Source: Nitrospira japonica (GTDB lineage: Bacteria > Nitrospirota > Thermodesulfovibrionia > Thermodesulfovibrionales > DYHX01). From it: a DNA stretch of 52,584 nt. Shown here piece after piece: positions 16,728-51,404 of the stretch. How positions within the stretch are numbered: position 1 is the first letter of the stretch; every line of letters starts with the position of its first letter. Made by a program: the position numbers and the translations under genes. The notes under the pieces are model-generated. The model saw nothing but the letters and a program-made list of their open reading frames with translations. It was not told the DNA's origin and made no database searches. The DNA lies in the NCBI GenBank assembly GCA_020723925.1, contig DYHX01000003.1, positions 1-52,584 of the forward strand, given 5' to 3'.

Positions 16728-16780
16728 TAAACGTAAGACGTGAAACGTAGTTGCCGTTTCACATCTCACGTCTTACATCA
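16728..16780. repeat. Degenerate 7-mer tandem repeat with inverted counterpart
   Basis: AAACGTA-AGACGTG-AAACGTA followed by CGTTTCA-CATCTCA-CGTCTTA-CATC, just before the thyX RBS. Confidence 0.55.
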
Positions 16781-16790
16781 GGGAGTCTAT

Positions 16791-17546
16791 ATGCCAGAAG
16801 CGAAACTAAAGGTAATCCTTTTACGCCACACTCCAAATCCTGAGGAGACCATTGCCATGGCTGCGAAGCTCTGCTACAGTCCTGCTGATATTGAATCCCT
16901 TAAAGATAAAATTGAGACTAAAGACCAAAAGATATTTGTAGAGAAACTTGTAAAGATGGGACATATGTCTCCCATTGAGCATGCGTCTTTCACTTTTGCA
17001 ATAGAGGGTATTTCTCGCGCATGTTCTCATCAGCTTGTCCGTCACAGGCTTGCCTCATACAGCCAGCAATCACAGAGATATGTATCAGAATCCAGAGCAC
17101 AGAGCACAGAACACAGAGCACAGACATTTGACTATATAATTCCACCTTCTATAGCAGAAGAACGGGAGGCAAAGAAGGCATTTGAGAATTTTATGATTGA
17201 AGCACAACGGGCATATGATTTCCTTGTCAGAAAGCTGAATGAAAAGGGCATAAAGGGCGAGGCTGCCAATCAGGATGCGAGGTTTGTGCTCCCAAACGCT
17301 GCAGAGACAAAGATAATCGTTACGATGAATGCAAGGGAGCTGCTGCATTTCTTCAGGCAGAGATGCTGCAACCGCGCACAATGGGAGATAAGGGCAATGG
17401 CAGAGATGATGCTACAGTCGGTAAAGGGTGTTGCCCCTGTAGTATTTGCTAAAGCAGGCCCAGGGTGCCTCTATGCACCATGCCCCGAGGGTGAATACAC
17501 ATGCGGAAAGATAAAAGCGGTGAGGAAGAAGTATGGAGTTAAGTAG
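16791..17546 (+). CDS. thyX: Flavin-dependent thymidylate synthase ThyX (with repeat-derived insertion)
   Basis: GHMSPIEH, ThyX motif RHRLASYSQQSQRY, DARFVLPNA, MNARELLHF, AQWEIR; start at ATG 16791 after GGGAG. Confidence 0.95.
   Translation: MPEAKLKVILLRHTPNPEETIAMAAKLCYSPADIESLKDKIETKDQKIFVEKLVKMGHMSPIEHASFTFAIEGISRACSHQLVRHRLASYSQQSQRYVSESRAQSTEHRAQTFDYIIPPSIAEEREAKKAFENFMIEAQRAYDFLVRKLNEKGIKGEAANQDARFVLPNAAETKIIVTMNARELLHFFRQRCCNRAQWEIRAMAEMMLQSVKGVAPVVFAKAGPGCLYAPCPEGEYTCGKIKAVRKKYGVK
17093..17126 (+). repeat. Intragenic heptamer tandem repeat (CAGAGCA)n in thyX
   Basis: CAGAGCA CAGAGCA CAGAACA CAGAGCA CAGACA encoding RAQSTEHRAQT. Confidence 0.85.
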
Positions 17547-17636
17547 AAAGGAATGATATTGCTTATTTAAATATGTGATATGATGGTATTAAAATCAGGC
17601 TAATATTGATATTAATCAGTACTACAGGGAGGGACT

Positions 17637-17804
17637 ATGCCGATTTATGAGTATGTTTGTATGGTCTGCAAGAAAGAATTTACAGTCATCCTTTCTTTTA
17701 GTGAATATGAGGCGAAGCCAAAAATCACCTGTCCGCACTGCGGAAACGACCACGTGGAGAGGAGATTAAGCACATTTTTCGCAAAGACTGCGAAGAAATC
17801 TTAA
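17637..17804 (+). CDS. FmdB-family zinc-ribbon protein (55 aa, absent from the ORF track)
   Basis: Translated by hand: MPIYEYVCMVCKKEFTVILSFSEYEAKPKITCPHCGNDHVERRLSTFFAKTAKKS; MPIYEY-CxxC...CPxCG signature; GGGAGGG RBS. Confidence 0.9.
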   Translation: MPIYEYVCMVCKKEFTVILSFSEYEAKPKITCPHCGNDHVERRLSTFFAKTAKKS

Positions 17805-17831
17805 ATAATGATAGGATAGGTTTTATTTAAT

Positions 17832-18023
17832 TTAAATTTCCCCTTTCTTTAACAGTTCCCTTATCTTCTTAGCCTTTTCGTCAAGGGCATAGAATAGAAA
17901 CCGATTTGCATCTTCAAGCCATTCAAGGCGCATCTCGACTGGTAGGGATATATATTTCTTGATATCCTCTTCACTTATATCGTAGAAATAACCTTTTAAC
18001 TCATTTCTCTCTTTATTCTTCAT
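17832..18023 (-). CDS. Small hypothetical protein (63 aa), partner of the nucleotidyltransferase
   Basis: Start overlaps the stop of the upstream gene; charged helical protein with SLPVEMRLEWLE. Confidence 0.65.
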   Translation of the reverse strand: MKNKERNELKGYFYDISEEDIKKYISLPVEMRLEWLEDANRFLFYALDEKAKKIRELLKKGEI

Positions 18024-18511
18024 TACTTTATCTTCTTTAATTTCTCAAGCATTTTAATATCTGACAAGTCCTGCTTCCTCGGGGATATCTTTTTCATCTT
18101 AATCATATCATCGATAGAGATTACAGGAATATCAAGGCCAGCGGCCTTCACAGTGATTCGTCTTTCATAGGCTCTGTCAAAGTCTACAGGATTTCTTATA
18201 AACACATCGACCTCCTGATAGGGCTTCTCTGGGTTGTATAAGGTAAATGCGAGCATATTCTTTTCTTTAAACCAGTAGTCCCTTTTTGATTCATCAATAA
18301 ACTCCTCCATCTGGACAGGCACCCTGGGCCTATAATTAAGCCTTTTCATGGCTTCAATAAAGTGATTAGAATTTTTTGTAGAAAGTTCAATCATCAAGTC
18401 GAGGTCTGATGTCATCCTTGGAATGCCATAAAAGTTAAGTGCCATGGCACCTACTACAAGAAATTTGATCTCTGCTTTTATGAGGGTCTGGAATATATCT
18501 TCGTAATACAT
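18023..18511 (-). CDS. Pol-beta superfamily nucleotidyltransferase-like protein
   Basis: VVGAMALNFYG, RMTSDLDL (DxD), later VD, DMIKMK, RKQDLSD. Confidence 0.8.
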   Translation of the reverse strand: MYYEDIFQTLIKAEIKFLVVGAMALNFYGIPRMTSDLDLMIELSTKNSNHFIEAMKRLNYRPRVPVQMEEFIDESKRDYWFKEKNMLAFTLYNPEKPYQEVDVFIRNPVDFDRAYERRITVKAAGLDIPVISIDDMIKMKKISPRKQDLSDIKMLEKLKKIK

Positions 18512-18630
18512 ACAAACTCATTGTAGCAGAACTTCTTTAACATGGAAACACCATTCAGATTAAGGCTTTCAAAAGTATTTGAATTTTTATTAAGATATAT
18601 ATCAATGAAATTAAGGAAATGAGGTAAGTT

Positions 18631-19398
18631 ATGGCATTTGTAATAGCCCTGGCGGGTAAAGGTGGTACCGGAAAGACGAGCATTGCAGGTCTTGCGGTTA
18701 GATATATTGTCGAGAAAAAGAAGAAGCCTGTGCTTGCAGTCGACGCTGATTCGAATAGCTGTCTCAATGAGGCCCTCGGTGTTGATATTCATACAACCAT
18801 AGGACATCTAAGAGAGGAATCCCTCCAGACCATAAGGAGCGGAGCAGAAAGGCCAGGTGGGATGTCTATGGAGCAGCTCTTTGACTATCAGGTACAGCAG
18901 TCCATTATAGAGTCAAAGGGGTTTGACCTTATGGTTATGGGACGCCCTGAAGGGCCTGGATGCTATTGTGCAGCAAATAATATTATAAGGAAATATACAG
19001 ATAAGCTCTCAGAGACCTATCCCTATGTTGTTATAGACAACGAGGCCGGTATGGAGCACCTGAGCAGAAGGACTACCCACAAAGTTGATCTGCTATTAAT
19101 TATCAGTGATCCGACTGTCAGGGGTGTCCAGACTGCAAAGAGGATTAACGACCTTGTTGATGAATTGAACCTTGATATCGATAGAAGGGTTTTGATAATA
19201 AACAGGATTTCAGGGTCTGATGGAGAGTTGCTCAAGAACCTTGCAGAAGACTCTGGGCTTCATGTTGCAGGCATTGTCCCTCAGGACAGCACAATATTTA
19301 ATTATGACCTTCAGGGAAAACCGATATTTCAACTTCCAGAGGATTCACCAGCATTAAGGACAGTTTTCAATATTCTGGATTTGCTTAACATACCATAA
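18631..19398 (+). CDS. cooC: CODH/ACS nickel-insertion ATPase CooC/AcsF
   Basis: Deviant Walker A GKGGTGKT, DAD, GPGCYC, DNEAGMEHLSR. Confidence 0.93.
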   Translation: MAFVIALAGKGGTGKTSIAGLAVRYIVEKKKKPVLAVDADSNSCLNEALGVDIHTTIGHLREESLQTIRSGAERPGGMSMEQLFDYQVQQSIIESKGFDLMVMGRPEGPGCYCAANNIIRKYTDKLSETYPYVVIDNEAGMEHLSRRTTHKVDLLLIISDPTVRGVQTAKRINDLVDELNLDIDRRVLIINRISGSDGELLKNLAEDSGLHVAGIVPQDSTIFNYDLQGKPIFQLPEDSPALRTVFNILDLLNIP

Positions 19399-19437
19399 GG
19401 GATTACAAAGATTATAAATAATTTAGGATTTAAACCC

Positions 19438-19457
19438 AATTTATAAGTTTATAAATT
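19438..19457. promoter_or_regulatory. AT-rich palindrome upstream of acsE (possible operator)
   Basis: AATTTATAA-GT-TTATAAATT in the AT-rich cooC-acsE spacer. Confidence 0.3.
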
Positions 19458-19551
19458 AAAATAATTACTAAAACTCTTTACCTTAAGTGTTAATTTGTGT
19501 TATTTTTTACATCTTAACTGAATTTAAAGACAGGAAAGGAGTCTCCAGAGG

Positions 19552-20334
19552 ATGCTTATAATCGGCGAGAAGTTAAGCATTATAGCCAAAAGGGTCAGAG
19601 ATGCTATGCTGAAGAAGGACAAAGGTCCAATACAGGAGATTGCAACTGCCCAGTGGAAGGCAGGGGCAGGGATGATAGATGCGAATATCGGCCCTGCCGA
19701 GGACGGAGGAGAGGCATTGATGGAATGGATGGTCACAACAATCCAGGAGCTCGTTCCTCTTCCGATATGTCTTGATACAACAAATGCGAGCGCAATAGAA
19801 GCAGGTCTTAAAGTCCATAATAATGAATGGGGCAGGCCCCTTATAAACTCAACCTCAAACGACCCTGAAAGGTTTCCAATCCTTGAGCTTGCTGCAAAAT
19901 ACAATTCACAGGTAATCGGTCTTACAGTCGGGAAGGGTGGTCTTCCTGCAGATGCGGAGGAGAGGGCAGCTATAGCAGCAGAGATGATGGCAAGGGCTAT
20001 GGAGTATGGAGTTCCCCTTGAAGATCTTTATCTTGACCCGCTCGTCCTCCAGATAGCAACATCCCAGGATCATGCAAGGCATGTGATAAAGGCAATAAAG
20101 ATGTTTCAGGAACTTAATGACCCTCCAATGAAAACAGTGGTTGGGCTGAGCAACATATCGAATGGATGTCCAAAGAACATAAGGCCGATTCTGAACAGCT
20201 ATTATCTCTCACTTTTAATGTATGAGGGGCTTACTGCTGCCATAGCAGACCCTCATGAGGTAGCTGTAACAGCAAAAACCATAGATGTGATAATGGGCAG
20301 GACACTTTATGCCCATTCCTATCTTGAGATGTAG
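19552..20334 (+). CDS. acsE: Methyltetrahydrofolate:corrinoid Fe-S protein methyltransferase
   Basis: Pterin-binding TIM barrel: MLIIGEKL, CLDTTN, LINST, LYLDP, VGLSNISNG; acs cluster context. Confidence 0.92.
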   Translation: MLIIGEKLSIIAKRVRDAMLKKDKGPIQEIATAQWKAGAGMIDANIGPAEDGGEALMEWMVTTIQELVPLPICLDTTNASAIEAGLKVHNNEWGRPLINSTSNDPERFPILELAAKYNSQVIGLTVGKGGLPADAEERAAIAAEMMARAMEYGVPLEDLYLDPLVLQIATSQDHARHVIKAIKMFQELNDPPMKTVVGLSNISNGCPKNIRPILNSYYLSLLMYEGLTAAIADPHEVAVTAKTIDVIMGRTLYAHSYLEM

Positions 20335-20345
20335 GAGGCGATAAG

Positions 20346-21287: not shown

Positions 21288-21292
21288 AACTA

Positions 21293-21366
21293 TGACACGG
21301 CGAAACAGGGACACGGCGACTCGGAGAAAAATCTCCCCTGCACCGTTTCTCCCATTCTCCGTGTTG
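21293..21366. repeat. Degenerate octamer tandem repeat plus inverted counterpart (acsD-acsC junction)
   Basis: GACACGGC-GAAACAGG-GACACGGC-GACTCGGA then CCCCTGCA-CCGTTTCT-CCCATTCT-CCGTGTT. Confidence 0.7.
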
Positions 21367-21395
21367 TTCATATTTTAGAAATTTGGAGGAAAAAG

Positions 21396-22739: not shown

Positions 22740-22740
22740 A

Positions 22741-22836
22741 GACAGTGTCAGTGTCAGTGAATAGTGTCAGCAATTAGTGCAAGTGAATAGTGACAGTGTC
22801 AGTAAAAGAAAAGAACTGACACTGAACACTGACATT
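22741..22836. repeat. (GTGTCA)-type tandem repeat plus inverted counterpart (acsC-acsB junction)
   Basis: AGTGTCAGTGTCAGTGAATAGTGTCAG... followed by ACTGACACTGAACACTGACA. Confidence 0.8.
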
Positions 22837-22865
22837 AATCACTATAAATAACATAGGAGGTTGGA

Positions 22866-25064: not shown

Positions 25065-25066
25065 AC

Positions 25067-25147
25067 TGACGCGGAGACGGGGAGACACGGAGAATCGGAG
25101 AAATAATTTTTTTCACCGTGTCTCCATTTCACCGTTTCCCCGTGTCA
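25067..25147. repeat. Octamer tandem repeat plus inverted counterpart forming a hairpin (acsB-cooS junction)
   Basis: TGACGCGGA-GACGGGGA-GACACGGA-GAATCGGA ... CACCGTGT-CTCCATTT-CACCGTTT-CCCCGTGTCA. Confidence 0.75.
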
Positions 25148-25167
25148 ATGAAAAAGGTGGAGGTAAA

Positions 25168-27153
25168 ATGGATAGTACAAAAAGCGCCGATAAATTGGCA
25201 GAACAGATAATAGAGTGGGGCGAAGCCCATGGAATGGAGACCTGTTTTGAAAGGACAGAAAGACTGAAGCCATGCCCTATAGGTTCCAGTGGTGCATGCT
25301 GTAAAGTCTGCCATATGGGGCCATGCAGATTTGTGGGTAAAAATGCAGAGGAAGAAGCAAGAGGCATATGCGGCGCAACGCTTCCAACAGTTGCAGCAAG
25401 GAATCTTGTAAGGATGATTGCTGCAGGGACTGCTGCACACAGCGACCATGCAAGGGACATGGCATTTACCTTACTCGCAGTTGCCAATGGAGAGACAAAG
25501 GACTTTCAGATAAAGGATGTGAGAAAACTCTACAGGGTTGCAGAGATACTCGGCGTTGAATTTGGAAATGGAAGGGCAGTTAACGATGTGGCGAGAGATG
25601 TAGCCCTTAAATTCATTGAAGATTTTGGCAGACAAAAAGGAGAGATAAATTACCTTAAGAGGGCACCCAAAAAGACCCAGGAAAGATGGAAGAAGTGGGG
25701 TGTTGCTACAAGGGGTATAGACAGAGAAGTTGCTGAGGCTATGCACAGGACATCTATTGGTGTTGACCATGACCCTGACCATCTCCTTACACATGGTTTA
25801 AGAACTGCCCTTGCTGATGGATGGGGCGGCTGCATGATAGCCACAGATATTACCGATATTCTTTTTGGAACTCCAAGACCTGTAAAGGCAGAGGCAAGTT
25901 TTGGAATATTCAAAGAGGATGAGGTCAACCTCGTTGTTCATGGACATGAACCATCCCTCGCAGAGATGATAGTAGATGTTACATCAGAGCCTGAGATGAT
26001 TGCCTATGCAAAATCAAAGGGCGCAAAAGGAATAAACCTTGGCGGTATGTGCTGTACTGCCAATGAAGTTCTGATGAGGCATGGTATTCCTACTGCTGGA
26101 GGCTTTACAAATCAAGAATTGGGGATAATGACAGGGCTTGTGGATGCAATCACAGTGGATGTGCAGTGTATAATGCCATCCATTGCTGAGCTTTCAAAGA
26201 AATTCCATACAAAGGTTATAACAACCTCTGAAAAAGCAAAGATTCCGGGTGCAATGCATGTGGAGTACGATGAACACAGGGCAAAAGAGATAGCAAGGGA
26301 GATAGTGAAGATTGCATGTGACAATTTCCCTAACAGAACAACAGGGGGGAGCCATATTACAGACAGGTTCCCTGTAATTGCAGGCTTTTCCCATGAATAT
26401 ATAGAATATATGCAGGGCGGTTCATGGAGGGGCTCATTCAGACCTCTGAATGATGCGATCATTGCAGGAAGGATTCGTGGGGTTGTTGGACTTGCAGGAT
26501 GTGACAATCCGAGAGTACAGTCACAGGGGATTCACAGATTTCTTGCAACAGAGCTTATCAAGAATGATGTGCTTATTGTTTCCACAGGTTGCGGCTCTGC
26601 TGCATGCGGGACTGCTGGTTTTCTTACACCCGAGATGGCATTAGAGAATGCTGGCCCTGGTCTGAGAGAAGTGTGTGAGGCTATTGGAATTCCACCAATA
26701 CTTCACCTTGGTGCATGTGTCGATAATTCAAGAATTTTGACCATTCTTTCGGCAATGGCAGAAGAAGGTGGTCTCTCTGATGAGATTGGTGGTATGCCTG
26801 GAGTTGGTATTGCTCCTGAGTGGATGTCTGAGAAGGCAATTGCCATCGGATGTTATTTTGCTGCATCAGGTGTTCCTGTAATATTCGGCGGCGAATCACC
26901 TGTTGGAGCAAGTCAGGAAGTAACAAGGATAATGACAGAGGTATGGATGGAGAGATTCAGGGGTGCAATGCATTTCGAGCCAGACCCTGAGAAGATGCTG
27001 GCACTTGCCCTTGATTACATTGATAAGGCAAGGGCAGCCCTTAAGTTAAGAAAGTACGAGCCAGGAAGATTTGGCACTGAAAGGGTGCTCATGGATATGG
27101 CTGCAAGGCGTGAAATCGAGAAGGCTGCAAAACCGCATATTGGAATATATTAG
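25168..27153 (+). CDS. cooS: Anaerobic Ni,Fe carbon monoxide dehydrogenase catalytic subunit
   Basis: CPIG..GACCKVCHMGPC..ICGA (D/B clusters), AAHSDH, HGHEP, GMCCTANE, DVQC, GCDNP, TGCG, GACVDNSR, PEWMSEKA. Confidence 0.97.
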   Translation: MDSTKSADKLAEQIIEWGEAHGMETCFERTERLKPCPIGSSGACCKVCHMGPCRFVGKNAEEEARGICGATLPTVAARNLVRMIAAGTAAHSDHARDMAFTLLAVANGETKDFQIKDVRKLYRVAEILGVEFGNGRAVNDVARDVALKFIEDFGRQKGEINYLKRAPKKTQERWKKWGVATRGIDREVAEAMHRTSIGVDHDPDHLLTHGLRTALADGWGGCMIATDITDILFGTPRPVKAEASFGIFKEDEVNLVVHGHEPSLAEMIVDVTSEPEMIAYAKSKGAKGINLGGMCCTANEVLMRHGIPTAGGFTNQELGIMTGLVDAITVDVQCIMPSIAELSKKFHTKVITTSEKAKIPGAMHVEYDEHRAKEIAREIVKIACDNFPNRTTGGSHITDRFPVIAGFSHEYIEYMQGGSWRGSFRPLNDAIIAGRIRGVVGLAGCDNPRVQSQGIHRFLATELIKNDVLIVSTGCGSAACGTAGFLTPEMALENAGPGLREVCEAIGIPPILHLGACVDNSRILTILSAMAEEGGLSDEIGGMPGVGIAPEWMSEKAIAIGCYFAASGVPVIFGGESPVGASQEVTRIMTEVWMERFRGAMHFEPDPEKMLALALDYIDKARAALKLRKYEPGRFGTERVLMDMAARREIEKAAKPHIGIY

Positions 27154-27210
27154 TGAATAGTAAAAATAAGTGTCTATGACTATTCACTGTTCACTAACGA
27201 CTATTCACTG
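27151..27210. repeat. AGTGAAT/ATTCACT heptamer repeat with inverted counterpart (cooS junction)
   Basis: TAGTGAATAGT ... ACTATTCACTGTTCACTAACGACTATTCACT. Confidence 0.7.
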
Positions 27211-27222
27211 TTTGGGGGTTAG

Positions 27223-27708: not shown

Positions 27709-27709
27709 G

Positions 27710-29596
27710 ATGGGAAAGCTAAAGAGCGCAGAGGATTTGAGAAACCTGAGAAAACTCCTTGAGGATGAGACGTTTAAACCGGGAACCCCGAGGATGAGGG
27801 TCTGCAGCGGTACCGCCTGCACTGCCACAGGCTCACAAAAAGTTGTAAATGCTATACAGGATGAGGCAGCAAGGAGGGGGATAACCCTCGATATTGTAAA
27901 GACAGGCTGCCAGGGTTTTTGCCAGAAAGGGCCTGTCATGAAGGTTGAACCACAGGGGATATTCTATCAGAAGGTTAACCCGGAACACGCCTCATGGCTC
28001 ATTAGCTATACAGTCATCGGAGGGATACCATACAGGCAGGGCCTTTTCAGGGAAAATATTTTGAGCGAACCTATACCTGAGATGACAGATGTACCCTTTT
28101 ATAAGAAACAGGTGAGAATAGTTTTGAAAAACAATGAGCTTATAGACCCACGAAATATCTATCATTATATAGCTGTTGGCGGATATTCAGCCCTGGAGAA
28201 GGCCATTGGCTCCATGACCCCTGATGAGGTATTGAATGAGATAGATAGGGCGAACCTGAGGGGCCGCGGCGGCGCAGGGTTTCCAGCAGGGAAGAAATGG
28301 AGGCACACGAAGAATGCCCCGGGAGAGATAAAGTTTGTAATAGCAAACGGTGATGAAGGAGACCCTGGAGCATTTATGGACAGGTCTGTTATGGAAGGGG
28401 ATCCCCACAGCCTTTTTGAGGGGATGCTCCTCTGCGCGTATGCCATTGGCGCACAATACGGGCTTATCTATGTGAGGCACGAATATCCATTAGCTGTTAA
28501 GAACCTGGGGATTGCAATTAAGCAGGCGGAGGAACTTGGGCTGCTCGGCAAGAATATCCTCGGCAGCAACCTTAGCTTTACCATTGATATAAGGGAAGGC
28601 GCCGGTGCCTTTGTATGCGGTGAATCAACTGCACTTGTTGCATCCATCGAGGGTGAGAGGGGATTCCCAAGGCCGAGACCCCCGAGGCTTTCCGAACCAG
28701 GCGGTGGGGTATGGGGTTATCCGAGTAATTTGAATAATATAGAGACATATGCATGTGTGCCTCCTATAATCGAGAGAGGGGCTGATTGGTTTCGAAGCAT
28801 TGGCACAGAGAATTCTCCAGGCACAAAGGTCTTTGCCCTTACAGGCAAGGTTAAAAACACAGGGCTTGTTGAGGTTCCGATGGGGATAACCCTCAGGGAG
28901 ATTGTTTTTGATATCGGCGGCGGTATTACGGGAGGCAAAAAGTTCAAGGCTGTGCAGACCGGTGGGCCTTCTGGAGGCTGCCTGCCTGCAGAATACCTTA
29001 ACCTGTCTGTGGATTTCGATTCCCTTACAAAGGTTGGCTCTATGATGGGCTCAGGCGGTATGGTCGTCATGGATGAGGACAACTGCATAGTCGATGTTGC
29101 AAAGTTTTTCCTCTCATTCACACAGTCAGAGTCCTGTGGCAAGTGTCCTCCGTGCAGAATAGGCACATCACAGATGCTCGAAATCCTCGAAAAAATAACT
29201 TCAGGACAGGGAGAAGAGGGCGATATCGAACGACTTGAGAAGATAGGAAGGCTTGTCCATGACGGCTCTCTCTGTGGTCTTGGCCAGAGCGCACCGAACC
29301 CTGTGCTTTCTACAATAAAATATTTCAGAGAAGAATACGAAGAACACATATATGATAAATATTGTAGGGCAAAGGCATGTAGCGGTCTTGGCATGTTCAG
29401 GATAGACAATGATGAATGCTTCCTTTGCGGGCTCTGCAAGCAGGCGTGTGCATTCGATGCTGTAAAAGAGACAAAGGATAAATTTTTTATAGATCAAGAC
29501 TACTGCACAAAATGCAAGGCGTGTTACCCTGCATGCCCGATAGGGGCGGTGAAAATAGAAAAACAAGCAAGAAAAAGTGTCAGTGTCAGTGAATAG
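27710..29596 (+). CDS. NuoF/HydB-like FMN/NAD(P)H-binding subunit with N-terminal [2Fe-2S] and C-terminal 2x[4Fe-4S]
   Basis: CSGTAC..GCQGFC; LRGRGGAGFP; NGDEGDPGAFMD; GAFVCGE; QTGGPSGGC; ESCGKCPPCR..SLCGLG; EHIYDKYCRAKAC; two CxxCxxCxxxC motifs. Confidence 0.94.
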   Translation: MGKLKSAEDLRNLRKLLEDETFKPGTPRMRVCSGTACTATGSQKVVNAIQDEAARRGITLDIVKTGCQGFCQKGPVMKVEPQGIFYQKVNPEHASWLISYTVIGGIPYRQGLFRENILSEPIPEMTDVPFYKKQVRIVLKNNELIDPRNIYHYIAVGGYSALEKAIGSMTPDEVLNEIDRANLRGRGGAGFPAGKKWRHTKNAPGEIKFVIANGDEGDPGAFMDRSVMEGDPHSLFEGMLLCAYAIGAQYGLIYVRHEYPLAVKNLGIAIKQAEELGLLGKNILGSNLSFTIDIREGAGAFVCGESTALVASIEGERGFPRPRPPRLSEPGGGVWGYPSNLNNIETYACVPPIIERGADWFRSIGTENSPGTKVFALTGKVKNTGLVEVPMGITLREIVFDIGGGITGGKKFKAVQTGGPSGGCLPAEYLNLSVDFDSLTKVGSMMGSGGMVVMDEDNCIVDVAKFFLSFTQSESCGKCPPCRIGTSQMLEILEKITSGQGEEGDIERLEKIGRLVHDGSLCGLGQSAPNPVLSTIKYFREEYEEHIYDKYCRAKACSGLGMFRIDNDECFLCGLCKQACAFDAVKETKDKFFIDQDYCTKCKACYPACPIGAVKIEKQARKSVSVSE

Positions 29597-29767
29597 TGTC
29601 AGTAAGAATTTTACTAAGAAGACCACAAGTAAGGCGACATAATTATGTTTGTTTTGTCATCCCGACTTGAACGGGATCATTCTTCAAGAAGGATTCCTGA
29701 CAAGCAGGAATGACAGAGTGTGGTGCCTTACTTATGACCGTATTTGTAACTGACACTGACACTAACT
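29576..29767. repeat. (GTGTCA) repeat pair enclosing a REP-like palindrome
   Basis: AGTGTCAGTGTCAGTGAATAGTGTCAG (29576-29602), inner TGTCATCCCGACTTG...CAAGCAGGAATGACA (about 29655-29715), then ACTGACACTGACACTAACT. Confidence 0.75.
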
Positions 29768-29776
29768 GGAGGCAAG

Positions 29777-30367
29777 ATGACAGAGCAGAAGGAAAAAAAG
29801 GTTGAGGACATAAAGAAAGAGGCAGAGGCAACAAAAAAATGCCCTGTCAACAAGGCCTTTTACTACATAGATGAGTTTCTGTCCGGCCCAATGTGCGGTA
29901 AATGCCTGCCGTGTTCTCTTGGGAGTTATGAGGCAAGGATTCGCCTTGATAATATAGTTCAAGGGAAAGGCGCAGAGGTTGACCTATACGCCCTGAAGAG
30001 GATTGCAAATGAGATGCTTGAAGGCTCCATGTGCAAGAAAGGCAAGGATACAGCTAAATTTATACTTGACTGGATGAGTACAGATGTTTATAGGGAGCAT
30101 ATTGAAGGAAAGTGCCCTGAGATGGAATGCCTTGCCCTCATAGAATACAGGATTATTCCCGAAAGATGCATTATGTGTGGGGACTGCCAGGAGGTTTGCA
30201 AGTATAATGCGATTATGGGTGAGAAGAAGGTGACGTATCTTTCAGGGTATCTGCCTTTTGAGATAAGGCAGAAGAGGTGCACCAAATGTGGTGAGTGCGT
30301 AAAAGTCTGCCCGACAGCGTCAATTGTGATTGTTGATGTAAAAAGTAAAGAGCTTGTTGGAGTATAA
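29777..30367 (+). CDS. Stand-alone Fe-S protein equivalent to the C-terminal half of NuoF/HydB ([4Fe-4S] N3-type domain + 2x[4Fe-4S])
   Basis: CPV..MCGKCLPCSLG..SMCKKG..EHIEGKCPEMEC, then CIMCGDCQEVC and CTKCGECVKVCP; GGAGG RBS. Confidence 0.85.
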   Translation: MTEQKEKKVEDIKKEAEATKKCPVNKAFYYIDEFLSGPMCGKCLPCSLGSYEARIRLDNIVQGKGAEVDLYALKRIANEMLEGSMCKKGKDTAKFILDWMSTDVYREHIEGKCPEMECLALIEYRIIPERCIMCGDCQEVCKYNAIMGEKKVTYLSGYLPFEIRQKRCTKCGECVKVCPTASIVIVDVKSKELVGV

Positions 30368-30376
30368 CTTTAAAAT

Positions 30377-30452
30377 TGTCACCCTGAACTTGTTTCAGGG
30401 TCTAATAAATTAAAATTGATTATTAAGATGCTGAAACGAGTTCAGCATGACA
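30377..30452. repeat. REP-like inverted palindromic pair
   Basis: TGTCACCCTGAACTTGTTTCAGGGTCT ... AGATGCTGAAACGAGTTCAGCATGACA. Confidence 0.75.
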
Positions 30453-30470
30453 TTAATAGGGGAGGCATAG

Positions 30471-40124: not shown

Positions 40125-40202
40125 ATATCTAAATCCGATAACGGAATACGATATAAATTAAATAATAAAATATCTCCTTGTCAAGCATGCGGGTTGAGAT
40201 AA

Positions 40203-42524: not shown

Positions 42525-43793
42525 ATGACGATTACCGAAAAGATACTTGCAGCCCATGCTGATAAGAAAGAGGTTTCGCCAGGAGAGTTGATAAATGCGA
42601 AAGTAGACCTTGTGCTTGCCAATGACATAACCGCGCCAATCGCTATTCAGGAATTCAAAAAGATTGGTGCAAAGGGTGTCTTTGATAAAGACAGAGTTGC
42701 CTTTATCCCTGATCACTTTGCACCACAGAAGGACATAAAGGCGGCCGAGCAGTGCAAGATGCTGAGGGAGTTTTCAAGGGAGTACCATCTTAGTTTATAT
42801 TTTGAGGTTGGAAGAATGGGTATTGAACATGCACTGCTTCCTGAAGAGGGGCTTGTTGTGCCGGGGGATTTGATCATAGGTGCGGACAGTCATACATGCA
42901 CTTACGGTGCCCTCGGAGCATTCTCAACAGGCGTTGGCTCAACAGATGTCGCCTCTGCAATGGCAACAGGTGAGTGCTGGTTCAAGGTTCCTGAGTCAAT
43001 GAAATTTATATATTATGGAAAACTCAATAGATGGGTTGGTGGTAAAGACTTAATACTTCACACCATCGGAGACATTGGTGTTGATGGTGCCCTTTACAGA
43101 GCAATGGAATTTGAAGGGGAGACCATAAGAAACCTTCCCATGCATGCAAGGCTCACGATGTGTAACATGGCAGTAGAGGCAGGCGGAAAGAGTGGTATCA
43201 TTGTGCCTGATGAGATAACAGCGGCTTATGTAAAAAACAGGGCAAAAAGACCATACAAGTTCTATTCTTCAGATGAAGATTCAGATTATATAGAAATAAG
43301 ACAATATAACTGCTCAAAGATTCCCCTCACAGTTGCCTGTCCTCATCTTCCATCAAATACAAGGCCTGCCGTAGAGCTTTTTGAGGTGGCTATTGACCAG
43401 GTTGTAATAGGCTCTTGCACTAATGGAAGACTGGAGGATTTGAGGGAGGCTGCAGAGGTTATAAAAGGGAGGAAGGTAAATTCTAATGTGAGGTTGATAG
43501 TGATTCCTGCAACACAGAGGATTTACAAGCAGGCAATGAAAGAAGGGCTCCTTGATATATTCATAGATGCTGAGGCAGTAGTCTCGACGCCTACATGCGG
43601 GCCATGCCTTGGCGGACATATGGGAATCCTCGCAAAGGGGGAAAGGGCGCTTGCAACAACGAACAGGAATTTTGTCGGCCGTATGGGACATCCAGAGAGC
43701 GAAGTCTATCTCTCCAACCCCGCAGTGGCAGCAGCATCAGCAGTTCTTGGGAGGATCGGGGTTCCTGAGGAATTAGGGTTGCAAAGAGAGTAA
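42525..43793 (+). CDS. leuC: 3-isopropylmalate dehydratase large subunit
   Basis: [52 protein letters not shown]. Confidence 0.92.
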
Positions 43794-43806
43794 TGCGTTA
43801 TGCGTA

Positions 43807-44328
43807 ATGAGTAATAAAACCGTAATACCACCGGAAGATAAACTGAAAGAATTGGGTATTGAGCTTCCTGAGGCACCAAAGCCGCTGGGTTCTTATGTCC
43901 CATTTGTAAGGAGCGGGAACCTTGTCTTTCTCAGCGGGATGCTTCCGTTGAGAGGAGGAAAGCTCGTAAGGCAGGGCAGGGTAGGTGAGAATATTACTAT
44001 CGATGAAGCAAGGGAAGATGCAAGAGTAACAGCAATAAATGCATTGTCTGTCTTAAAATTAAACATAGGAAGTCTCAATAAGGTAACGAGATGTGTAAAG
44101 CTAACGGGCTATGTCGCCTCAGCCCCTGATTTTACAGAGCAGCCAAAGGTCCTTAATGCTGCCTCGGACCTGATGTTTGAGATTTTTGGAGAAGGAGGAA
44201 GGCATGCGAGGGCAGCAGTCGGCGTCTCTGTGCTCCCGCTCAATTCACCAATCGAAATAGAGTTCATATTTGAAATAGTTGCTTCTCATCTTCACTTCTT
44301 TACTCGCAACTCATTACTGTTTTATTGA
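43807..44328 (+). CDS. RidA/YjgF/YER057c family protein
   Basis: LGIELP..PLGSYVP, LSGMLP, NAASDL..IFG..GRHARAAVGV..LP. Confidence 0.9.
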   Translation: MSNKTVIPPEDKLKELGIELPEAPKPLGSYVPFVRSGNLVFLSGMLPLRGGKLVRQGRVGENITIDEAREDARVTAINALSVLKLNIGSLNKVTRCVKLTGYVASAPDFTEQPKVLNAASDLMFEIFGEGGRHARAAVGVSVLPLNSPIEIEFIFEIVASHLHFFTRNSLLFY

Positions 44329-44331
44329 CCT

Positions 44332-45639
44332 ATGGTAAAACCTGTTGTTGTAATAGTCGGAAGACCAAATGTTGGCAAATCAACCCTCTTTAACAGGATG
44401 GTTGGCTCTGCCACTGCTATAGTCGAGGATATCCCTGGCGTTACGCGAGACAGAAACTATATGGAGGCAGAGTGGAATGAAAAGGTTTTTATCGCTGTTG
44501 ACACAGGAGGATTTTATCCCGAGCCAGCAGAAGACATATTCCTCCAGGTCAAGGAGCAGGCGCTGTTTGCAATTGACGAGGCAGACCTTATAATCCATCT
44601 GCTTGATGGCAAGGAGGGGCTTAATCCATCAGATATCGAGCTTTCAAGGATCCTCAGGGCATCAGGCAAGAAGGTCATCTGGGCTGTTAACAAGATAGAC
44701 GGACCTAAAAGGGAAGACAGGCTATACGACTTCTATCCCCTTGGAGTTGATGAACTTATACCTGTCTCAGCGGCAACCGGATATAATTTTGATGAATTTA
44801 TGGACAGAATTATTGCCCTGCTTCCACCTGCTGTTAAAAAAGATGTTGATTATCCCAAGGTTGCTGTTGTTGGCAGGCCGAATGTTGGCAAGTCCACACT
44901 TGTGAATGCCCTCCTTGGAAAGAAGAGGATGATTGTCAGTCCAATTCCAGGCACAACAAGGGACTCTATTGACACAGTCTGCAGCTACTATGGCAAGAAG
45001 TATCTGTTTATAGATACAGCAGGTATAAGAAGAAAGGGTAAGGTAGGCTACTCTGTCGAGAGATTCTCGATGGTCAGGGCAATAAGGAGTATAGAACGCT
45101 GTGATGTAGCACTCATAGTGCTTGATGCATCTGAAGGCATAGTAGAACAGGATCAGAAGATTGCAGGCATTGTGGAAAGATATGGCAGGGGGGCGGTATT
45201 TTTGCTGAACAAGTGGGACCTGTTAGAAGACCCTGAGACTGAATACAAGAGGCTCATTCCAGAGCTGCAGCGAAAGATGTGGTTTATCAGCCATGCCCCT
45301 GTGATTACAACAGCAGGCATGGAAAGAAAGAGGATTACAAAGGTTTTTCCTGTAATCGATGAGGTAATCGCTGAGAGGAAGAAGAGGATAAGCACAGCAG
45401 AAATGAACAGATTTTTGAGAGAGGTTGTATCAAGTGCGCCAATGCCTTTATATAAGGGTAAGGCAGTAAAACTCTATTACATGACCCAGGTCAAGACAGA
45501 GCCACCAGGCTTTGCAATCTTCACTAATCATCCAGAAGGCTTGAAAGAGGCGCATATAAGATACATAGAGAAATGTCTGAGAGATAAATTTTCCTTCAAG
45601 GGTACACCCATAAGAATTTATAAGAAATTAAAAATGTAG
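44332..45639 (+). CDS. der: Ribosome biogenesis GTPase Der (EngA)
   Basis: Two GRPNVGKS P-loops, DTGG/DTAG, NKID/NKWD, KH-like C-terminus (GTPIR). Confidence 0.97.
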   Translation: MVKPVVVIVGRPNVGKSTLFNRMVGSATAIVEDIPGVTRDRNYMEAEWNEKVFIAVDTGGFYPEPAEDIFLQVKEQALFAIDEADLIIHLLDGKEGLNPSDIELSRILRASGKKVIWAVNKIDGPKREDRLYDFYPLGVDELIPVSAATGYNFDEFMDRIIALLPPAVKKDVDYPKVAVVGRPNVGKSTLVNALLGKKRMIVSPIPGTTRDSIDTVCSYYGKKYLFIDTAGIRRKGKVGYSVERFSMVRAIRSIERCDVALIVLDASEGIVEQDQKIAGIVERYGRGAVFLLNKWDLLEDPETEYKRLIPELQRKMWFISHAPVITTAGMERKRITKVFPVIDEVIAERKKRISTAEMNRFLREVVSSAPMPLYKGKAVKLYYMTQVKTEPPGFAIFTNHPEGLKEAHIRYIEKCLRDKFSFKGTPIRIYKKLKM

Positions 45640-45760
45640 ATGCAAAGTGCAAGATGCAATATGTGCAAGTGTATGTATATGAAAGCTTCTTGCATACACT
45701 TACACATTCACCCCCACACCTATGCATAGGTTGTGGGTGTAAACCCGTGGTGTGGGGGTT
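45640..45760. repeat. Degenerate TGCAA-type tandem/inverted repeat and CCCCCACACC/GGTGTGGGGG hairpin
   Basis: ATGCAAA-GTGCAAG-ATGCAAT...TTGCATACACTTACAC; ACCCCCACACC (45710-45720) inverted to GGTGTGGGGGT (45749-45759). Confidence 0.6.
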
Positions 45761-45774
45761 CACATTCGAGAGAG

Positions 45775-46590: not shown

Positions 46591-46591
46591 T

Positions 46592-46756: not shown

Positions 46757-47649
46757 CCTAAATCCCCAAGTAAAAACTGAACAAGCGTCACTGCTGATAT
46801 TGCGGCTGTCTCTGCACGTAGTATTCGCCTGCCGAGAGACGTAACAATCAGTCCTTTAGACTTTGCAAGATTAACCTCTTCTTCTGTGAACCCACCCTCA
46901 GGGCCAATGGCAACAAAGAGTGGGCAGTGAATAGTGAATAGTGAATAGTGAATAGTATCTACTTTATTTTCTGCCGACTGTTCACTAACGACTATCGACT
47001 TTTTTAATTTCTCCACTGCCTCTGATATCTTTATGCCTCCTTCTTCCCAGAAGATGAGGCCGTTTATAGGCTGGGACAGTCCCGATTCTACCCCTCGTAA
47101 ACTCGGCGGTAAATCTGGGACAGTCCCATCGTGAGCGTGTAATCCCCCATCACCCCCCTTTAGAAAAGGGGGGGCGGGGGGATTTGAACTAAAAATGTCG
47201 CAGAAATTAACAGGCTCATGAACAACAGGAATCATAGTTCTACCGCTCTGTCTCGATGCCTCCTCTGCTATCTTTCTCCATCGCTCGACCTTTCTTGTCT
47301 CCCTTATCTGGCTCCTCTCTGTGATTGTCGGGATTATCTCTTTAACTCCAAGCTCTGTTGCTTTTTGAATAACGAGATCCATTTTTTCGCCCTTCATAAG
47401 TCCCTGTACAAGTGTAATATTGAGCGGAGACTCTGTATTGCAAGGGAATGTCTCTATGACCTCTGCAATGACCTCTCTTTTGTCTGTCTTAATGATGGTT
47501 GTTTTTAAACAGTTTCCCATACCATCAAATATGACCAGAGTATCGCCGACCTTACTTCTCAATACCGATGTTAGATACCTGGCCTGCTCCTTTTGTATTC
47601 GTATGTGTCTTTCTTTTAGATCAGCTGATGGCAGTAAGATTCGAGGCAT
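46753..47649 (-). CDS. rsmE: 16S rRNA m3U1498 methyltransferase RsmE (with repeat-derived insertions)
   Basis: VLR..GD, KGEKMDLVIQKATELGV, EASRQSGR, IGPEGGF, LGRRILRAETA; follows dnaJ. Confidence 0.93.
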   Translation of the reverse strand: MPRILLPSADLKERHIRIQKEQARYLTSVLRSKVGDTLVIFDGMGNCLKTTIIKTDKREVIAEVIETFPCNTESPLNITLVQGLMKGEKMDLVIQKATELGVKEIIPTITERSQIRETRKVERWRKIAEEASRQSGRTMIPVVHEPVNFCDIFSSNPPAPPFLKGGDGGLHAHDGTVPDLPPSLRGVESGLSQPINGLIFWEEGGIKISEAVEKLKKSIVVSEQSAENKVDTIHYSLFTIHCPLFVAIGPEGGFTEEEVNLAKSKGLIVTSLGRRILRAETAAISAVTLVQFLLGDLG

Positions 47650-47658
47650 TAACCCCCT

Positions 47659-48762
47659 CTATTTTTCAGCGCTCGAAAATAAATCCTTCAGTTTCTCTTT
47701 AAACCCTTTCGAAACCTCATCACCATTTATTTTTGCAAATTCCTCGAGTATCTCCCTCTGTCTCGGTGTGAGTCTCTTTGGCACTTCAACATATACCCTG
47801 ACAATCTGGTCACCCTTTGCATGGCCGCCAAGTTTTTGTATACCTTTCCCCTTGAGATGGAAGGTCTTTCCAGAAGGAGTTCCAGCAGGAATCTTTATTT
47901 TTGCTATACCATCAAGGGTGGGCACTTCTATCTCTGCCCCAAGGGCTGCATGGGGAAATGCGATCGGAATCTCACAGAATAAATCCATCCCATCCCTTTT
48001 GAAGAAGGGGTGTTCATCAACATGCAGAATTATGTAGAGGTCACCTGGCGGACCTCCGTAGACACCAAGTTCACCTTCCCCTGACATCTTGAGTCTTGAA
48101 CCTGTATCAACGCCTGGGGGGATTTTTACTGATATGGTGCGGACCTTTTTAACCTTGCCATTTCCCCTACACGTTGTGCAGGGGTCTGTAATAATCTGGC
48201 CAGTTCCATGGCAGCGGCCACATGTCCTTGAAACGCTGAAGAACCCCTCCTGAAACCTGACATGCCCTGTACCTTTGCAATTTGGACATGAAACAGGTCC
48301 CTTGCCTGGCATGGAACCTGTGCCATTACATGGTGTGCAGTTTTCCCACCTTGGCACCTCTATGAATTCCTCAGTGCCAAAGGCAGCCTCCTCAAGGGTT
48401 ATATCGAGGTCATATCTCAGGTCATTGCCTTTTGTTGGCCTCGGTCTGCGCTGTCCTGTAAATGTTCCGAAGAAGTCTCCGAAGATATCCTCAAATACAT
48501 CCGTGAAGGCTGTTCCGCCTCTGAATGCTCCGAACCCAGCTCCAATGCCTTCTGCTGTTCCAAATCTGTCGTAGTTTGCCCTTTTTTCAGGATCGCTGAG
48601 GCAGGTGTATGCCTCGTTTATCTCCTTGAATTTTTCTTCGGACTCTTTATTCTCGGGGTTCCTGTCAGGGTGGTATTTCAGGGCAAGGCGCCTGAACGCC
48701 TTCTTAATTTCGGCTTCAGAAGCGTTTCTTGATACACCCAGCATTTCATAATAATCTCTCAT
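47659..48762 (-). CDS. dnaJ: Chaperone DnaJ
   Basis: J domain with HPD, G/F region, four CxxCxGxG repeats. Confidence 0.98.
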
Positions 48763-48765
48763 TTT

Positions 48766-48842
48766 TATTAGTTATTAGTTTTAGTTAGGGATTTTCTGTC
48801 GTCTTTCCTTAACCCCTTAACTACTTGCTACTTATTACTTGT
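48766..48842. repeat. Degenerate heptamer tandem/inverted repeat (dnaK-dnaJ junction)
   Basis: TTAGTTA-TTAGTTT-TAGTTA ... TAACTAC-TTGCTAC-TTATTAC. Confidence 0.55.
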
Positions 48843-48843
48843 T

Positions 48844-50754
48844 TTAGTTCTCCTTCTTATTTTTATCTACTTCTTCGAATTCTGCTTCAACAACTTCTTC
48901 TTCAGGTGCTTTTGCTTTTGCTTCAGCACCTGCGCCTGCTTGTGCCCCTGCTGCCCTGTATATGTGCTCTGCAAATTTGTGAGAGGCCCTTGTGAGATTT
49001 TCAATTGCAGACTTTATCTCTGCCACATCTGTGCTTGTATCCTTGACTTTCTTACATTTTTCCAGTGCATCTTCTACATCTTTCTTCTCAGACTCGCTAA
49101 GCTTGTCTCCATATTCGCGGAGGGATTTTTCTGCTGTGTATACAAGGGTGTCAGCCTCATTCCTTGCCTCAGCGAGCTGTTTCTTCTTCTTGTCCTCCTC
49201 TGCATGGGACTCTGCATCCCGCATCATCTTTTTGATCTCTTCTTCTGTGAGGCCGCTTGATACAGTTATCCTTATGGATTGTTCTTTGCCTGTGCCAAGG
49301 TCCTTTGCTGACACATGGAGTATTCCATTGGCGTCGATATCAAATGATACCTCTATCTGTGGCATACCTCTTGGTGCTGGTGGTATTCCTACGAGTTCAA
49401 AAACCCCGAGGAGTTTGTTATCTGCTGCCATTTCCCTTTCACCCTGGGACACCTTGATCGTTACTGCAGGTTGATTGTCAGCAGCAGTCGAGAAGATTTG
49501 ACCCTTTTTTGTCGGGATTGTTGTATTCCTCTCTATAATCTTTGTGAATATACCACCGAGGGTCTCTATGCCGAGTGAGAGCGGAGTGACATCCAGGAGA
49601 AGTACTTCCCTGACCTCTCCTTTGAGCACTGCGGCCTGTATTGCAGCTCCCACAGCAACAACCTCATCCGGATTAACGGTTTTGTTTGGCTCCTTCCCAA
49701 AAAAGCCCTGAACTGTCTGCTGAACCTTTGGTGTCCTTGTCTGCCCGCCAACAAGAAGTACCTCATCAATATTCAAAGGAGATAAATTTGCATCACCGAG
49801 GGCATTTTTGCATGGCCCAATTGTTTTCTCTACGAGGTCTCCTGTAAGCTGTTCGAACTTTGCCCTTGAGAGTTTCATCAAGAGGTGTTTTGGACCTGTT
49901 GCATCGGCCGTTATGAACGGAAGGTTTATCTCTGTCTCCATGGCTGTCGAAAGCTCGATTTTTGCCCTTTCAGCAGCCTCTTTAAGCCTCTGCAGCGCCA
50001 TCTTATCCTGTTTCAGATCAATGCCCTGGTCTTTTTTGAATTCGCCTACCATCCAATCGATAATCCTCAGGTCAAAGTCATCACCGCCGAGGTATGTATC
50101 GCCATTCGTGGACTTTACCTCTATTACACCCTCACCGATCTCGAGTATGGATATATCGAATGTGCCTCCTCCAAGGTCATAGACAGCAATCTTCTCCTCT
50201 CTCTTCTTGTCCATCCCATAAGCAAGGGATGCAGCTGTTGGCTCGTTAATTATCCTCAATACATTAAGTCCTGCAATCTTGCCTGCATCTTTTGTTGCCT
50301 GGCGCTGGCTGTCGTCAAAATAGGCCGGTACTGTTACGACAGCATCTGTAACAGGTTCTCCGAGATAATCCTCAGCAGCCTGTTTCAGTTTCTGCAGTAT
50401 CATGGCAGATATCTCAGGAGGAGAATACATCTTTCCCCTTATCTCCACGTGGGCATCTCCATTGAGTGCCTCGACTATCCTGTATGGCAATCGCTTTTTT
50501 GCATGCTCAACCTGAGGGGAGTTGTACTTTCTTCCCATGAGCCTTTTTATTGAGAATATTGTATTCTCAGGGTTTGTAATCGCCTGTCTTTTGGCAATCT
50601 GGCCAACGAGTCTCTCCCCCTTTTCAGTAAAGGCAACGACAGATGGAGTTGTCCGGGTGCCCTCCTGGTTTGGGATGACCACAGGCTCGCCAGCCTGGAC
50701 AACGGCAACAACAGAGTTTGTTGTGCCAAGGTCTATTCCTATTGCTTTACCCAT
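48844..50754 (-). CDS. dnaK: Chaperone DnaK
   Basis: [45 protein letters not shown]. Confidence 0.99.
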
Positions 50755-50759
50755 TTTTA

Positions 50760-51404
50760 TTATTCCTCCTCATCTTTATTTATATTTATTCTAATCTCTA
50801 TATTGCCTTCTTCTGTCTTTTCTTTCTCCTGACTCTCGACTAACGACTGACGACTATTGACTGTCTTTTGAGGTTTCTTTGATACAGCAACAAGGGAAGG
50901 GCGCAGCACTTTATCCCTGAACATGTAGCCCTTTCTAAACTCCTCAACCACTGTTTTTTCATCTGTGTCCTCTCTCTCAACCTGCGTCATAGCATGATGC
51001 AGCGATGGATCGAATCGTTTGCCGAGGGCAGAGATTGGAGTAATGCCGAATTTCTCAATGACCCTCTGGAACTCCTTGAGTGTTATCTCTACGCCCTGGA
51101 CGAGTCCCTGTGAAACATTATTCGATGAATGTTTCACAGCCAACTCGAGATTATCTATAACAGGCAGGAGTTCATACAGCAATGACTCATTGCTGTATTT
51201 TATAAGCTCCTCCTTATCTTTCAATACCCTCTTCCTGTAATTGTCGAACTCTGCATAGAGCCGCAGGTACCTGTCTTTTAATTCCTGTAGCTCCTCCTCG
51301 GGTTTTAGTTTTTCTGTCTCCACCACCTCTTCTTTTTCACCGATAACCTGTTCCATTCCTGAAACTTCTTCCTCTCTCTTCTCTATGGTTTTATTTTCTT
51401 CCAA
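50760..51404 (-). CDS. grpE: Nucleotide exchange factor GrpE
   Basis: [41 protein letters not shown]. Confidence 0.96.

Follow-up and report, generated by a model that had tools for sequence, protein, structure and literature searches.

Paired heptamer arrays between and within genes of a Nitrospira japonica assembly and their relation to a four-helix-bundle gene cassette

The window analyzed here, 52,584 nucleotides (nt) that make up contig C79 of a Nitrospira japonica assembly (GCA_020723925.1; genome of 1.87 Mb, 94% complete), carries thyX, an acsE-acsD-acsC-acsB-cooS-nuoEF(G) operon, leuC-der, rsmE, and an hrcA-grpE-dnaK-dnaJ operon. Several junctions between these genes, and some positions inside them, are occupied by arrays of short, degenerate tandem units (arms), many of which are paired with a second array of inverted complement. 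The original prediction listed nine such pairs and saw in them empty cassette sites, the product of a dedicated mechanism, or mRNA hairpins. Here, the arrays are described in the window, in the genome, and at the same junctions in relatives, and their origin is weighed.

The array family in the window and the genome

Each window site was folded as a single strand and compared with 60 base-shuffles. Across 11 sites this gave six strong stems (z -3.8 to -7.7), three weak ones, and two single arms, although site boundaries set by eye flatter these z values. Of the listed pairs, those at 16728, 21293, 22744, 25067, 27151, and 29576 proved strong and those at 45640 and 48766 weak, while 43788 has a lone arm. 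Repeats do occupy most acs junctions, as had been stated, but the acsE-acsD junction is minimal and repeat-free. A single in-frame array in thyX (17093-17124) had been overlooked. The sites are as follows.

16728..16780, forward strand: paired 7-mer arms in the thyX leader (z -4.5)
17093..17124, forward strand: single purine-rich 7-mer array, unit CAGAGCA, in frame in thyX, adding about 9 codons
20333..20342, forward strand: minimal acsE-acsD junction, stop codon overlapping the ribosome-binding site; the unoccupied state
21292..21366, forward strand: paired 8/9-mer arms (GACACGG / CCGTGT type) between acsD and acsC (z -4.4)
22743..22846, forward strand: paired 6/7-mer arms (AGTGTC / AGTGAAT mix) between acsC and acsB (z -5.1)
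25067..25149, forward strand: paired 8-mer arms between acsB and cooS (z -6.0)
27152..27212, forward strand: paired AGTGAAT-family arms between cooS and nuoE (z -3.8)
29575..29768, forward strand: AGTGTC arms around a second inverted pair and a GTCAT-type palindrome resembling repetitive extragenic palindromes (REP), after nuoF; nested insertions (z -7.7)
43788..43815, forward strand: single 7-mer arm over the leuC stop codon, without complementary partner (z +0.4)
45638..45712, forward strand: 7-mer arm and inner pair of another family, after der, beside a CCCCACACC-type repeat (z -2.9)
46924..47000, reverse strand: imperfectly paired AGT-type arms, in frame in rsmE (z -1.9)
48764..48848, reverse strand: weakly paired mixed-unit arms between dnaK and dnaJ (z -2.4)
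50826..50864, reverse strand: single 7-mer arm without complementary partner, in frame near the grpE 3' end (z +1.0)

Both exact repeats reported earlier, one of 27 nt at 22744 and 29576 and one of 19 nt at 27186 and 46977 (in rsmE), are present in two copies, and the arms at 29576 indeed nest around a REP-like palindrome (z -7.7), the inner part of which has a 24-nt exact match on contig C91. The cooS-nuoE element has at least 16 nt in common with 27 genome loci, and the thyX array has a 27-nt exact copy on contig C103. A search of the window returned no Rfam match.

The repeat-array family is real and genome-wide. A genome scan, suggested as a check on the original prediction, found 340 arrays of period 7 versus 2, 1, and 1 in three local 3-mer shuffles of the 1.87-Mb genome, a strong enrichment; that for period 8 (52 versus 5, 2, and 0) and period 6 (23 versus 1, 8, and 6) was modest. 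The modal copy number is four to five (249 of the 340 period-7 arrays). Units are diverse, with 139 unit words among 314 strong arrays, and share a loose AGT core on the purine-rich strand, as called from an alignment seeded with an AGT-type word; a fixed terminal word common to the element ends is absent. Where two arrays lie no more than 60 nt apart, a purine-rich array precedes a pyrimidine-rich one in 52 cases and follows it in none, while pairs of the same type number 14 and 11. An inverted partner built strictly from the same unit lies within 150 nt of 37 of the 340 arrays (control, 2 of 340), some pyrimidine-rich periodic partner is found on the expected side of 117 of 312 arrays and on the wrong side of 3, and fold analysis shows that many partner arms are built from a different unit.

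The description of the family as one of gene junctions applies to the 98 arrays between co-directional genes, but 198 of the 340 lie inside open reading frames (ORFs), as located with crude ORF calls. For annotators, the 143 of 1,711 ORFs that contain an array are of concern, as the arrays distort start-codon calls and alignments. The arrays are degenerate and sit in intact housekeeping genes, e.g., thyX, rsmE, and grpE. At the thyX array position, 25 of 29 relatives have no insert and 4 have unrelated short inserts, while inspection by eye of the rsmE position shows other repeat-coded peptides in about 8 of 19 relatives; a second position in rsmE holds palindromic repeats of other families in several relatives. 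These in-gene arrays look like independent insertions at loops that tolerate them. G/C-run palindromes are also read in frame in rsmE (~47065-47185), at a site that relatives fill independently, and where pyrimidine-rich arms lie at the starts of genes on contigs C25, C57, and C92, they code for hydrophobic stretches that resemble signal peptides. The true start of thyX is probably the ATG at 16791.

Four-helix-bundle genes between the arms

The genome holds two genes for four-helix-bundle proteins (TIGR02436/PF05635), on contigs C31 and C90, and both are bracketed by arms of families that also occur in the window: AGTGTC on C31 (also at 22744 and 29576) and AGTGAAT on C90 (also at 27151 and 46926). 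A full cassette would read purine-rich arm, four-helix-bundle gene, pyrimidine-rich arm. None of the window copies encloses a PF05635 ORF. The C31 protein matches XCC0516 (E 1e-16), whose solved structure has five chains, and this PF05635/S23p homologue has been described as a pentamer (PMC4990558). The match of the C31 protein to the Avd model NF033474 (E 1.9e-6) has 28 bits, below the cut-off of 80.

Across the order Thermodesulfovibrionales, 36 of 61 genomes have a four-helix-bundle match. Sixty loci were sampled from the best matches, and among the 59 cargo genes with complete flanks an array lies upstream of 40, downstream of 43, and on both sides of 30. When 52 cargo proteins were compared, arm units were shared by 10 of 18 cross-genome pairs with at least 60% protein identity versus 2 of 1,258 pairs below it, an association that was reached in 0 of 500 permutations. 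Of 27 relatives that have the gene, 21 showed arrays in the loci sampled, versus 2 of 12 that lack it, counts taken across kin that are not independent. In this genome, a profile built on roughly half of the cargo proteins retrieved matched the two genes and no remnants, though it also missed a fragment known from a relative (L041, below), and a filter for small array-bracketed ORFs listed eight, all ordinary genes or artefacts, but was insensitive enough to miss both known cassettes.

The arm design serves more than one cargo, since GxxExxY genes (presumably of nuclease-like fold), found in 6 of the 61 genomes, are flanked by longer-unit arms of their own, and similar arms are empty at the acsC-acsB junction of one relative (L018). 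GxxExxY genes have no match in the present genome. Among the cargo types that had been suggested, four-helix-bundle genes are present here and a candidate nuclease in relatives, and no toxin was seen among the junction inserts shown. Four-helix-bundle cassettes also appear to lie between two halves of an arsA-like gene (L134, L138, and L139) and just before a cas2-like gene (L162 and L169), as named from the flanking sequence.

The junctions of the acs operon allow the states of the insert to be compared. In a first sample of 40 loci, they are minimal (stop codon and ribosome-binding site) or filled, either with paired arrays of many units or with other palindromes, and three species of one genus differ in content at nearly every junction. 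With 160 further loci, the sample comprises 618 distinct junction sequences, 139 of them no longer than 45 nt and 223 scored as periodic, at a low threshold without shuffle control that admits false positives. Each junction has 16 to 26 different units among relatives, and purine-to-pyrimidine order prevails over the reverse by 46 to 2. One relative (L251) has intact four-helix-bundle cassettes at acsB-cooS (L251:11573-12107) and cooS-nuoE (14064-14550). Another (L278) has a 5'-truncated cargo gene with the right arm at acsC-acsB, the result of deletion or misassembly, and gene-less pairs with the truncated cassette's unit at three other acs junctions. At acsE-acsD, L243 keeps both ends of the cargo gene between arms, with the middle missing (E 0.00096), and L041 has a weak remnant, a 37-codon fragment whose sole NCBIfam match is TIGR02436 (E 0.051, under the cut-off); a candidate in L331 (E 1.2) was not counted. 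The same junctions thus occur without insert, with arms only, and with arms and gene, and deletion intermediates lie among them.

The converse comparison started from 15 looser matches between junctions filled in a relative and this genome, reduced to 6 distinct ones by requiring that the neighbors be adjacent here and at least 50% identical on both sides. Four of these 6 junctions hold gene-less arrays here, versus 150 of 1,198 co-directional junctions. At two, named from the flanking sequence as hisA-hisF and the junction before cobQ, the arms are nearly identical to those of the filled relatives and the cargo gene is absent; one of the two now holds a nested 8/9-mer element. The suggestion that the pairs are empty cassette sites thus finds direct support in the intact cassettes of L251, the truncated one of L278, the remnant in L243 and the weak one in L041, and these two gene-less junctions. 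The proposed search for cargo between the arms at orthologous junctions did find four-helix-bundle genes, at junctions that vary among relatives.

Copying, turnover, and folding of the arrays

Entire elements without a cargo gene are copied. The one at 22744 recurs, together with its loop, at C18:1420-1514 with 93% identity over 95 nt. A search among 371 array regions for matching pairs of at least 50 nt at at least 85% identity returned 31 pairs, which involve 22 of the regions, are in both orientations, and include nested composites of up to 146 nt that recur with their non-periodic linkers at unrelated loci. These pairs and the 22744 copy indicate that gene-less elements, or some of them at least, are moved intact, so the dedicated mobilizing mechanism that had been proposed is likely, even if the enzyme behind the movement was not found. 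No target-site duplication was visible by eye at the 22744/C18 pair or between minimal and filled junctions. Whole gene-less copying, nesting in loops, change of unit number, and covariation of arms with cargo proteins are all observed. Contig C57, which carries cobalamin genes, packs 30 arrays into 25 kb; one nested composite occurs there several times, which suggests local hopping.

Conventional palindromic repeat families are abundant as well and occupy the same junctions and loops as the arrays. A REP-like doublet (10053-10125) lies inside a longer inverted repeat (10013-10171) and shares at least 16 nt with 84 genome loci, one copy of it preceding the C31 cassette. Copies of two further high-copy, non-periodic families are found at ~14361-14443 and ~45700-45745, with many of their members at contig ends. 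The genome encodes four Y1/HUH proteins (PF01797), none of which is bracketed by a heptamer arm pair in the flanks shown, although two have irregular short runs downstream. A telomerase-like generator of arrays was ranked low since reverse transcriptase (PF00078) had no match in the 94%-complete assembly.

Turnover is fast even within a closely related population, represented by a long contig of sequencing run X2 aligned to the window; runs X3 and X4, which covered the stretch in pieces only, were left out of this comparison, and run X1 may be the origin of the window DNA itself. Genes of the operon are 97 to 98% identical (differences: 26 over 944 nt for acsD, 28 over 1,333 nt for acsC, and 33 over 2,211 nt for acsB). 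At acsE-acsD, where the window junction is minimal, X2 has 439 extra letters, and it has other sequence at four window elements (21285, 22727, 25065, and 29559). Its acsC-acsB junction begins with a different heptamer family, the acsB-cooS element is replaced by 137 other letters, and 217 nt are skipped after nuoF. The left arm of the 27151 element is longer by 21 nt, a length change at 27150 which indicates that slippage acts. The 16728 pair is kept with scattered substitutions only. Within thyX (16915-17028), 1192 letters replace 112, a net gain of 1080 nt and a multiple of three. ThyX inteins exist, and our guess is that this insert is an intein with a homing endonuclease. In relatives, dnaK and dnaJ overlap or have other arms or other repeats between them.

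The arms do not show the strand preference expected of selected mRNA hairpins. In this genome, the sense strand gives the better fold for 10 of 24 intergenic pairs and 11 of 44 in-ORF pairs; among relatives, it does so for 25 of 44 acs-junction pairs. For 33 of the 44 in-ORF pairs the better fold is that of the antisense strand, a bias that is probably due to stop codons limiting the units that can be read. Intergenic arms do favor their own partner over others in pairing (20 of 24), a gene for RNase III is present, and the right arm ends no more than 9 nt before GGAG in 33 of 44 acs-junction pairs of relatives. This gap before the ribosome-binding site is also the only one in a compact operon where an insert is tolerated. 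Given the missing sense preference and the fast turnover, regulation by design is unlikely, though incidental effects such as RNase III cuts may occur. The idea that the hairpins tune operon stoichiometry found no support: in addition to the lack of sense preference, many relatives have minimal junctions and most arrays are in genes or unpaired. Hairpins between acs genes should not be read as regulatory without evidence.

Explanations, known repeats, and neighboring features

These observations are probably explained by repeat pairs that are gene-less, still-mobile derivatives of a small selfish four-helix-bundle cassette. Cassettes and their empty shells would enter without target-site duplication and persist where tolerated, i.e., in the gap from stop codon to ribosome-binding site, in surface loops of proteins, and in the loop of an older insert. 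The cassette would come first, its gene would usually be lost by internal deletion, and the shell would then spread and decay, with further deletion or exchange between neighboring elements leaving single and mixed arms. The protein, a putative pentamer and distant relative of Avd, would bind, on single-stranded DNA or RNA, its own arm of four or five units; it would act in trans, and host recombination or repair enzymes would make the insertion. The longer stems in mRNA would probably be substrates of RNase III, like those of rRNA intervening sequences (IVSs), and this cutting would be a side effect rather than tuned regulation.

Several points weigh against this explanation. Intact cassettes account for 2 of the 618 junction sequences, so that for most sites there is no proof of direction, be it loss of the gene or its capture by existing arms. 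Two cargo genes stand against ~340 arrays and 139 unit words, which leaves most units without a matching protein in the 94%-complete assembly; furthermore, 270 of the 340 arrays lack a same-unit inverted partner within 1.5 kb, and whole-element copies are detectable for 22 of 371 regions only. The comparison of filled junctions (4 of 6) is a small sample, and the rank correlation between arrays and gene, based on counts across kin, is weak (p 0.056). Some close pairs of cargo proteins represent one inherited insertion site, and shared descent would explain the correlation of arms with proteins equally well. The 439-nt insert of X2 is cassette-sized and ends in a 7-mer arm directly before GGAGG, but its last 30 letters are the only ones read. 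Finally, PF05635 proteins have no known catalytic activity, and the binding of arms by a pentamer is purely what we infer.

The arrays could instead be made anew at each site by slippage, template switching, or repair synthesis with a 7-base bias, and the cargo gene would then be an opportunist that lands in the stems or is kept by them. Such events would account for the 139 unit words among 314 arrays, the 16 to 26 units per acs junction, the many arrays that are single or have mismatched partners, and the 21-nt length change at 27150, and 3' extension from both ends of a break would give the purine-to-pyrimidine order. They would not readily account for non-periodic loops and nested composites of up to 146 nt at unrelated loci, for arm units that track cargo proteins, or for gene remnants between arms, and PF00078 was not found in the assembly; we regard local origin as unlikely. 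Movement of REP- or MITE-like (miniature inverted-repeat transposable element) non-autonomous elements by a transposase elsewhere, e.g., a Y1/HUH protein, with the cargo gene a passive passenger, is quite unlikely: a purine/pyrimidine heptamer pair surrounds none of the four PF01797 genes in the flanks shown, and the element ends have the loose AGT core in place of a fixed terminal word. The existence of those four genes, the abundance of palindromic families at the same junctions and loops, and the lack of an evident target duplication at the 22744/C18 pair speak for it, and absence of target duplication fits HUH chemistry.

We judge it very unlikely that the pairs are selected regulatory elements, whether mRNA hairpins or protein-binding sites, that set stoichiometry or translation. 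The closeness of the right arm to GGAG, the better pairing with the own partner, and the encoded RNase III are what such a function would call for, but closeness to the ribosome-binding site is also found where an insert is tolerated. Sense-strand preference is absent, 139 of the 618 junctions are no longer than 45 nt, 198 of the 340 arrays are in ORFs, and elements are replaced within a 97 to 98% identical population. Beyond the cassette explanation, and with considerable doubt, we put forward the possibility that PF05635 proteins are the trans-acting, sequence-specific mobility factors of an unrecognized class of transposase-free elements. Each pentamer would read about five 7-base units, protein and unit would co-diversify, and the gene-less progeny would explain the excess of heptamers in bacteria and write peptide loops into ~8% of the proteins of this organism.

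The ORF-bearing IVSs of 23S rRNA have complementary ends, heptamers, an S23p ORF, and RNase III cutting (PMC4990558). As in these, the termini are complementary, and a four-helix-bundle ORF (S23p/PF05635) lies between arms on C31 and C90 and at acs junctions of L251 and, truncated, L278, though in no window copy; decay of the ORF by deletion and tandem heptamers of variable copy number beside the start codon are common to both (PMC4990558). IVS-type stems form at six window sites (z -3.8 to -7.7) and not at 43788 and 50826. Unlike the rRNA IVSs, the inserts are between or inside protein genes, as are all window copies, and a genome contains hundreds of them, most without a gene, drawn from many unit families, and often nested. 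Furthermore, excision by RNase III was shown for IVSs (PMC4990558), whereas for the arrays it is a prediction. Homology of PF05635 with Avd of diversity-generating retroelements, with a homologous fold, has been noted (PMC10053308); unlike Avd, the C31 protein scores below the NF033474 cut-off, and reverse transcriptase was not found in the assembly.

Paired tandem sites of classes 1 to 3 in Geobacter metallireducens, termed "putative global regulator binding sites," resemble the arrays in their three to five tandem 7- to 9-nt units, opposite-strand pairing at variable distance, and position between genes (PMC2700814). The paired sites are absent from a sister species, a related heptamer family lies inside genes, and class 2 (TCTCCGTS[Y]) resembles the elements at 21293 and 25067 (PMC2700814). 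They were read as IHF/HU-type binding sites, with no link to cargo or mobility in the passages cited (PMC2700814); the fast turnover of the window elements argues against global-regulator binding. The GGGAATC repeats of Xanthomonas are dispersed heptamers near stop or start codons, with 70 convergent pairs in Xcc (PMC4692102), and the TAACTGA repeats of Beggiatoaceae are heptamer arrays near gene ends (PMC4679880). Both share with the arrays convergent pairs, some copies in frame, and an unexplained origin, but each of those genomes has one dominant unit where this one has many (PMC4692102, PMC4679880). They were read as G-quadruplexes or translational regulators (PMC4692102, PMC4679880), and a regulatory reading was proposed for similar repeats in both PMC2700814 and PMC4679880; the latter nowhere uses the terms "four helix," "S23," or "intervening."

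Literature linking paired heptamer arrays outside rRNA to PF05635 was not found, within a coverage that excluded most subscription papers and the supplements of PMC2700814 and PMC4692102, the lists in which may include genes between paired sites. Heptamer repeats are known in several phyla without an origin, and PF05635, for all the solved structures of this large family, has no assigned function; at the present locus the two are linked by one set of junctions in a core carbon-fixation operon, which are found empty, filled, or with the insert in decay. Similar dispersed heptamer arrays are also found in the short tandemly repeated repetitive (STRR) sequences of cyanobacteria. REP/REPIN elements, MITEs, and coding repeats of the Rickettsia palindromic element (RPE) type are short, non-autonomous, high-copy inverted repeats, intergenic or in frame, that nest at hotspots. 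Unlike these, the arrays have arms that are tandem repeats of a variable unit, and the gene of the full-length element is not a transposase. REP/REPIN elements have a conserved 20- to 40-nt palindrome, a fixed terminal tetranucleotide, and a cognate RAYT gene flanked by repeats, while the arrays have no fixed terminal word and leave the Y1 genes, which may yet act in trans, unbracketed. MITEs bring target-site duplication and a cognate DDE transposase, and the arrays share with them the copying of whole non-coding elements between loci. In phase-variable simple sequence repeat (SSR) contingency loci, slippage in a long, perfect tract switches a gene on or off; this class was rejected, as the arrays are degenerate, mostly of four to five copies, and in intact housekeeping genes. 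The family behaves like a non-autonomous mobile element that has arisen from an IVS-type cassette, being itself neither an rRNA IVS nor a REP.

Some neighboring features of the window lie outside the array family. Downstream of the nested element after nuoF, a 196-amino-acid protein (29777-30367) resembles the C-terminal part of NuoF (NADH_4Fe-4S and Fer4 domains); relatives have the same ORF in this place, some with a CBS-like gene ahead of it, and a palindromic element (30376-30455) separates it from nuoG. A small unlisted ORF (17638-17805) is CxxC zinc-ribbon-like, and a region at 18023-18511 has a weak match to AbiEii-type nucleotidyltransferase.

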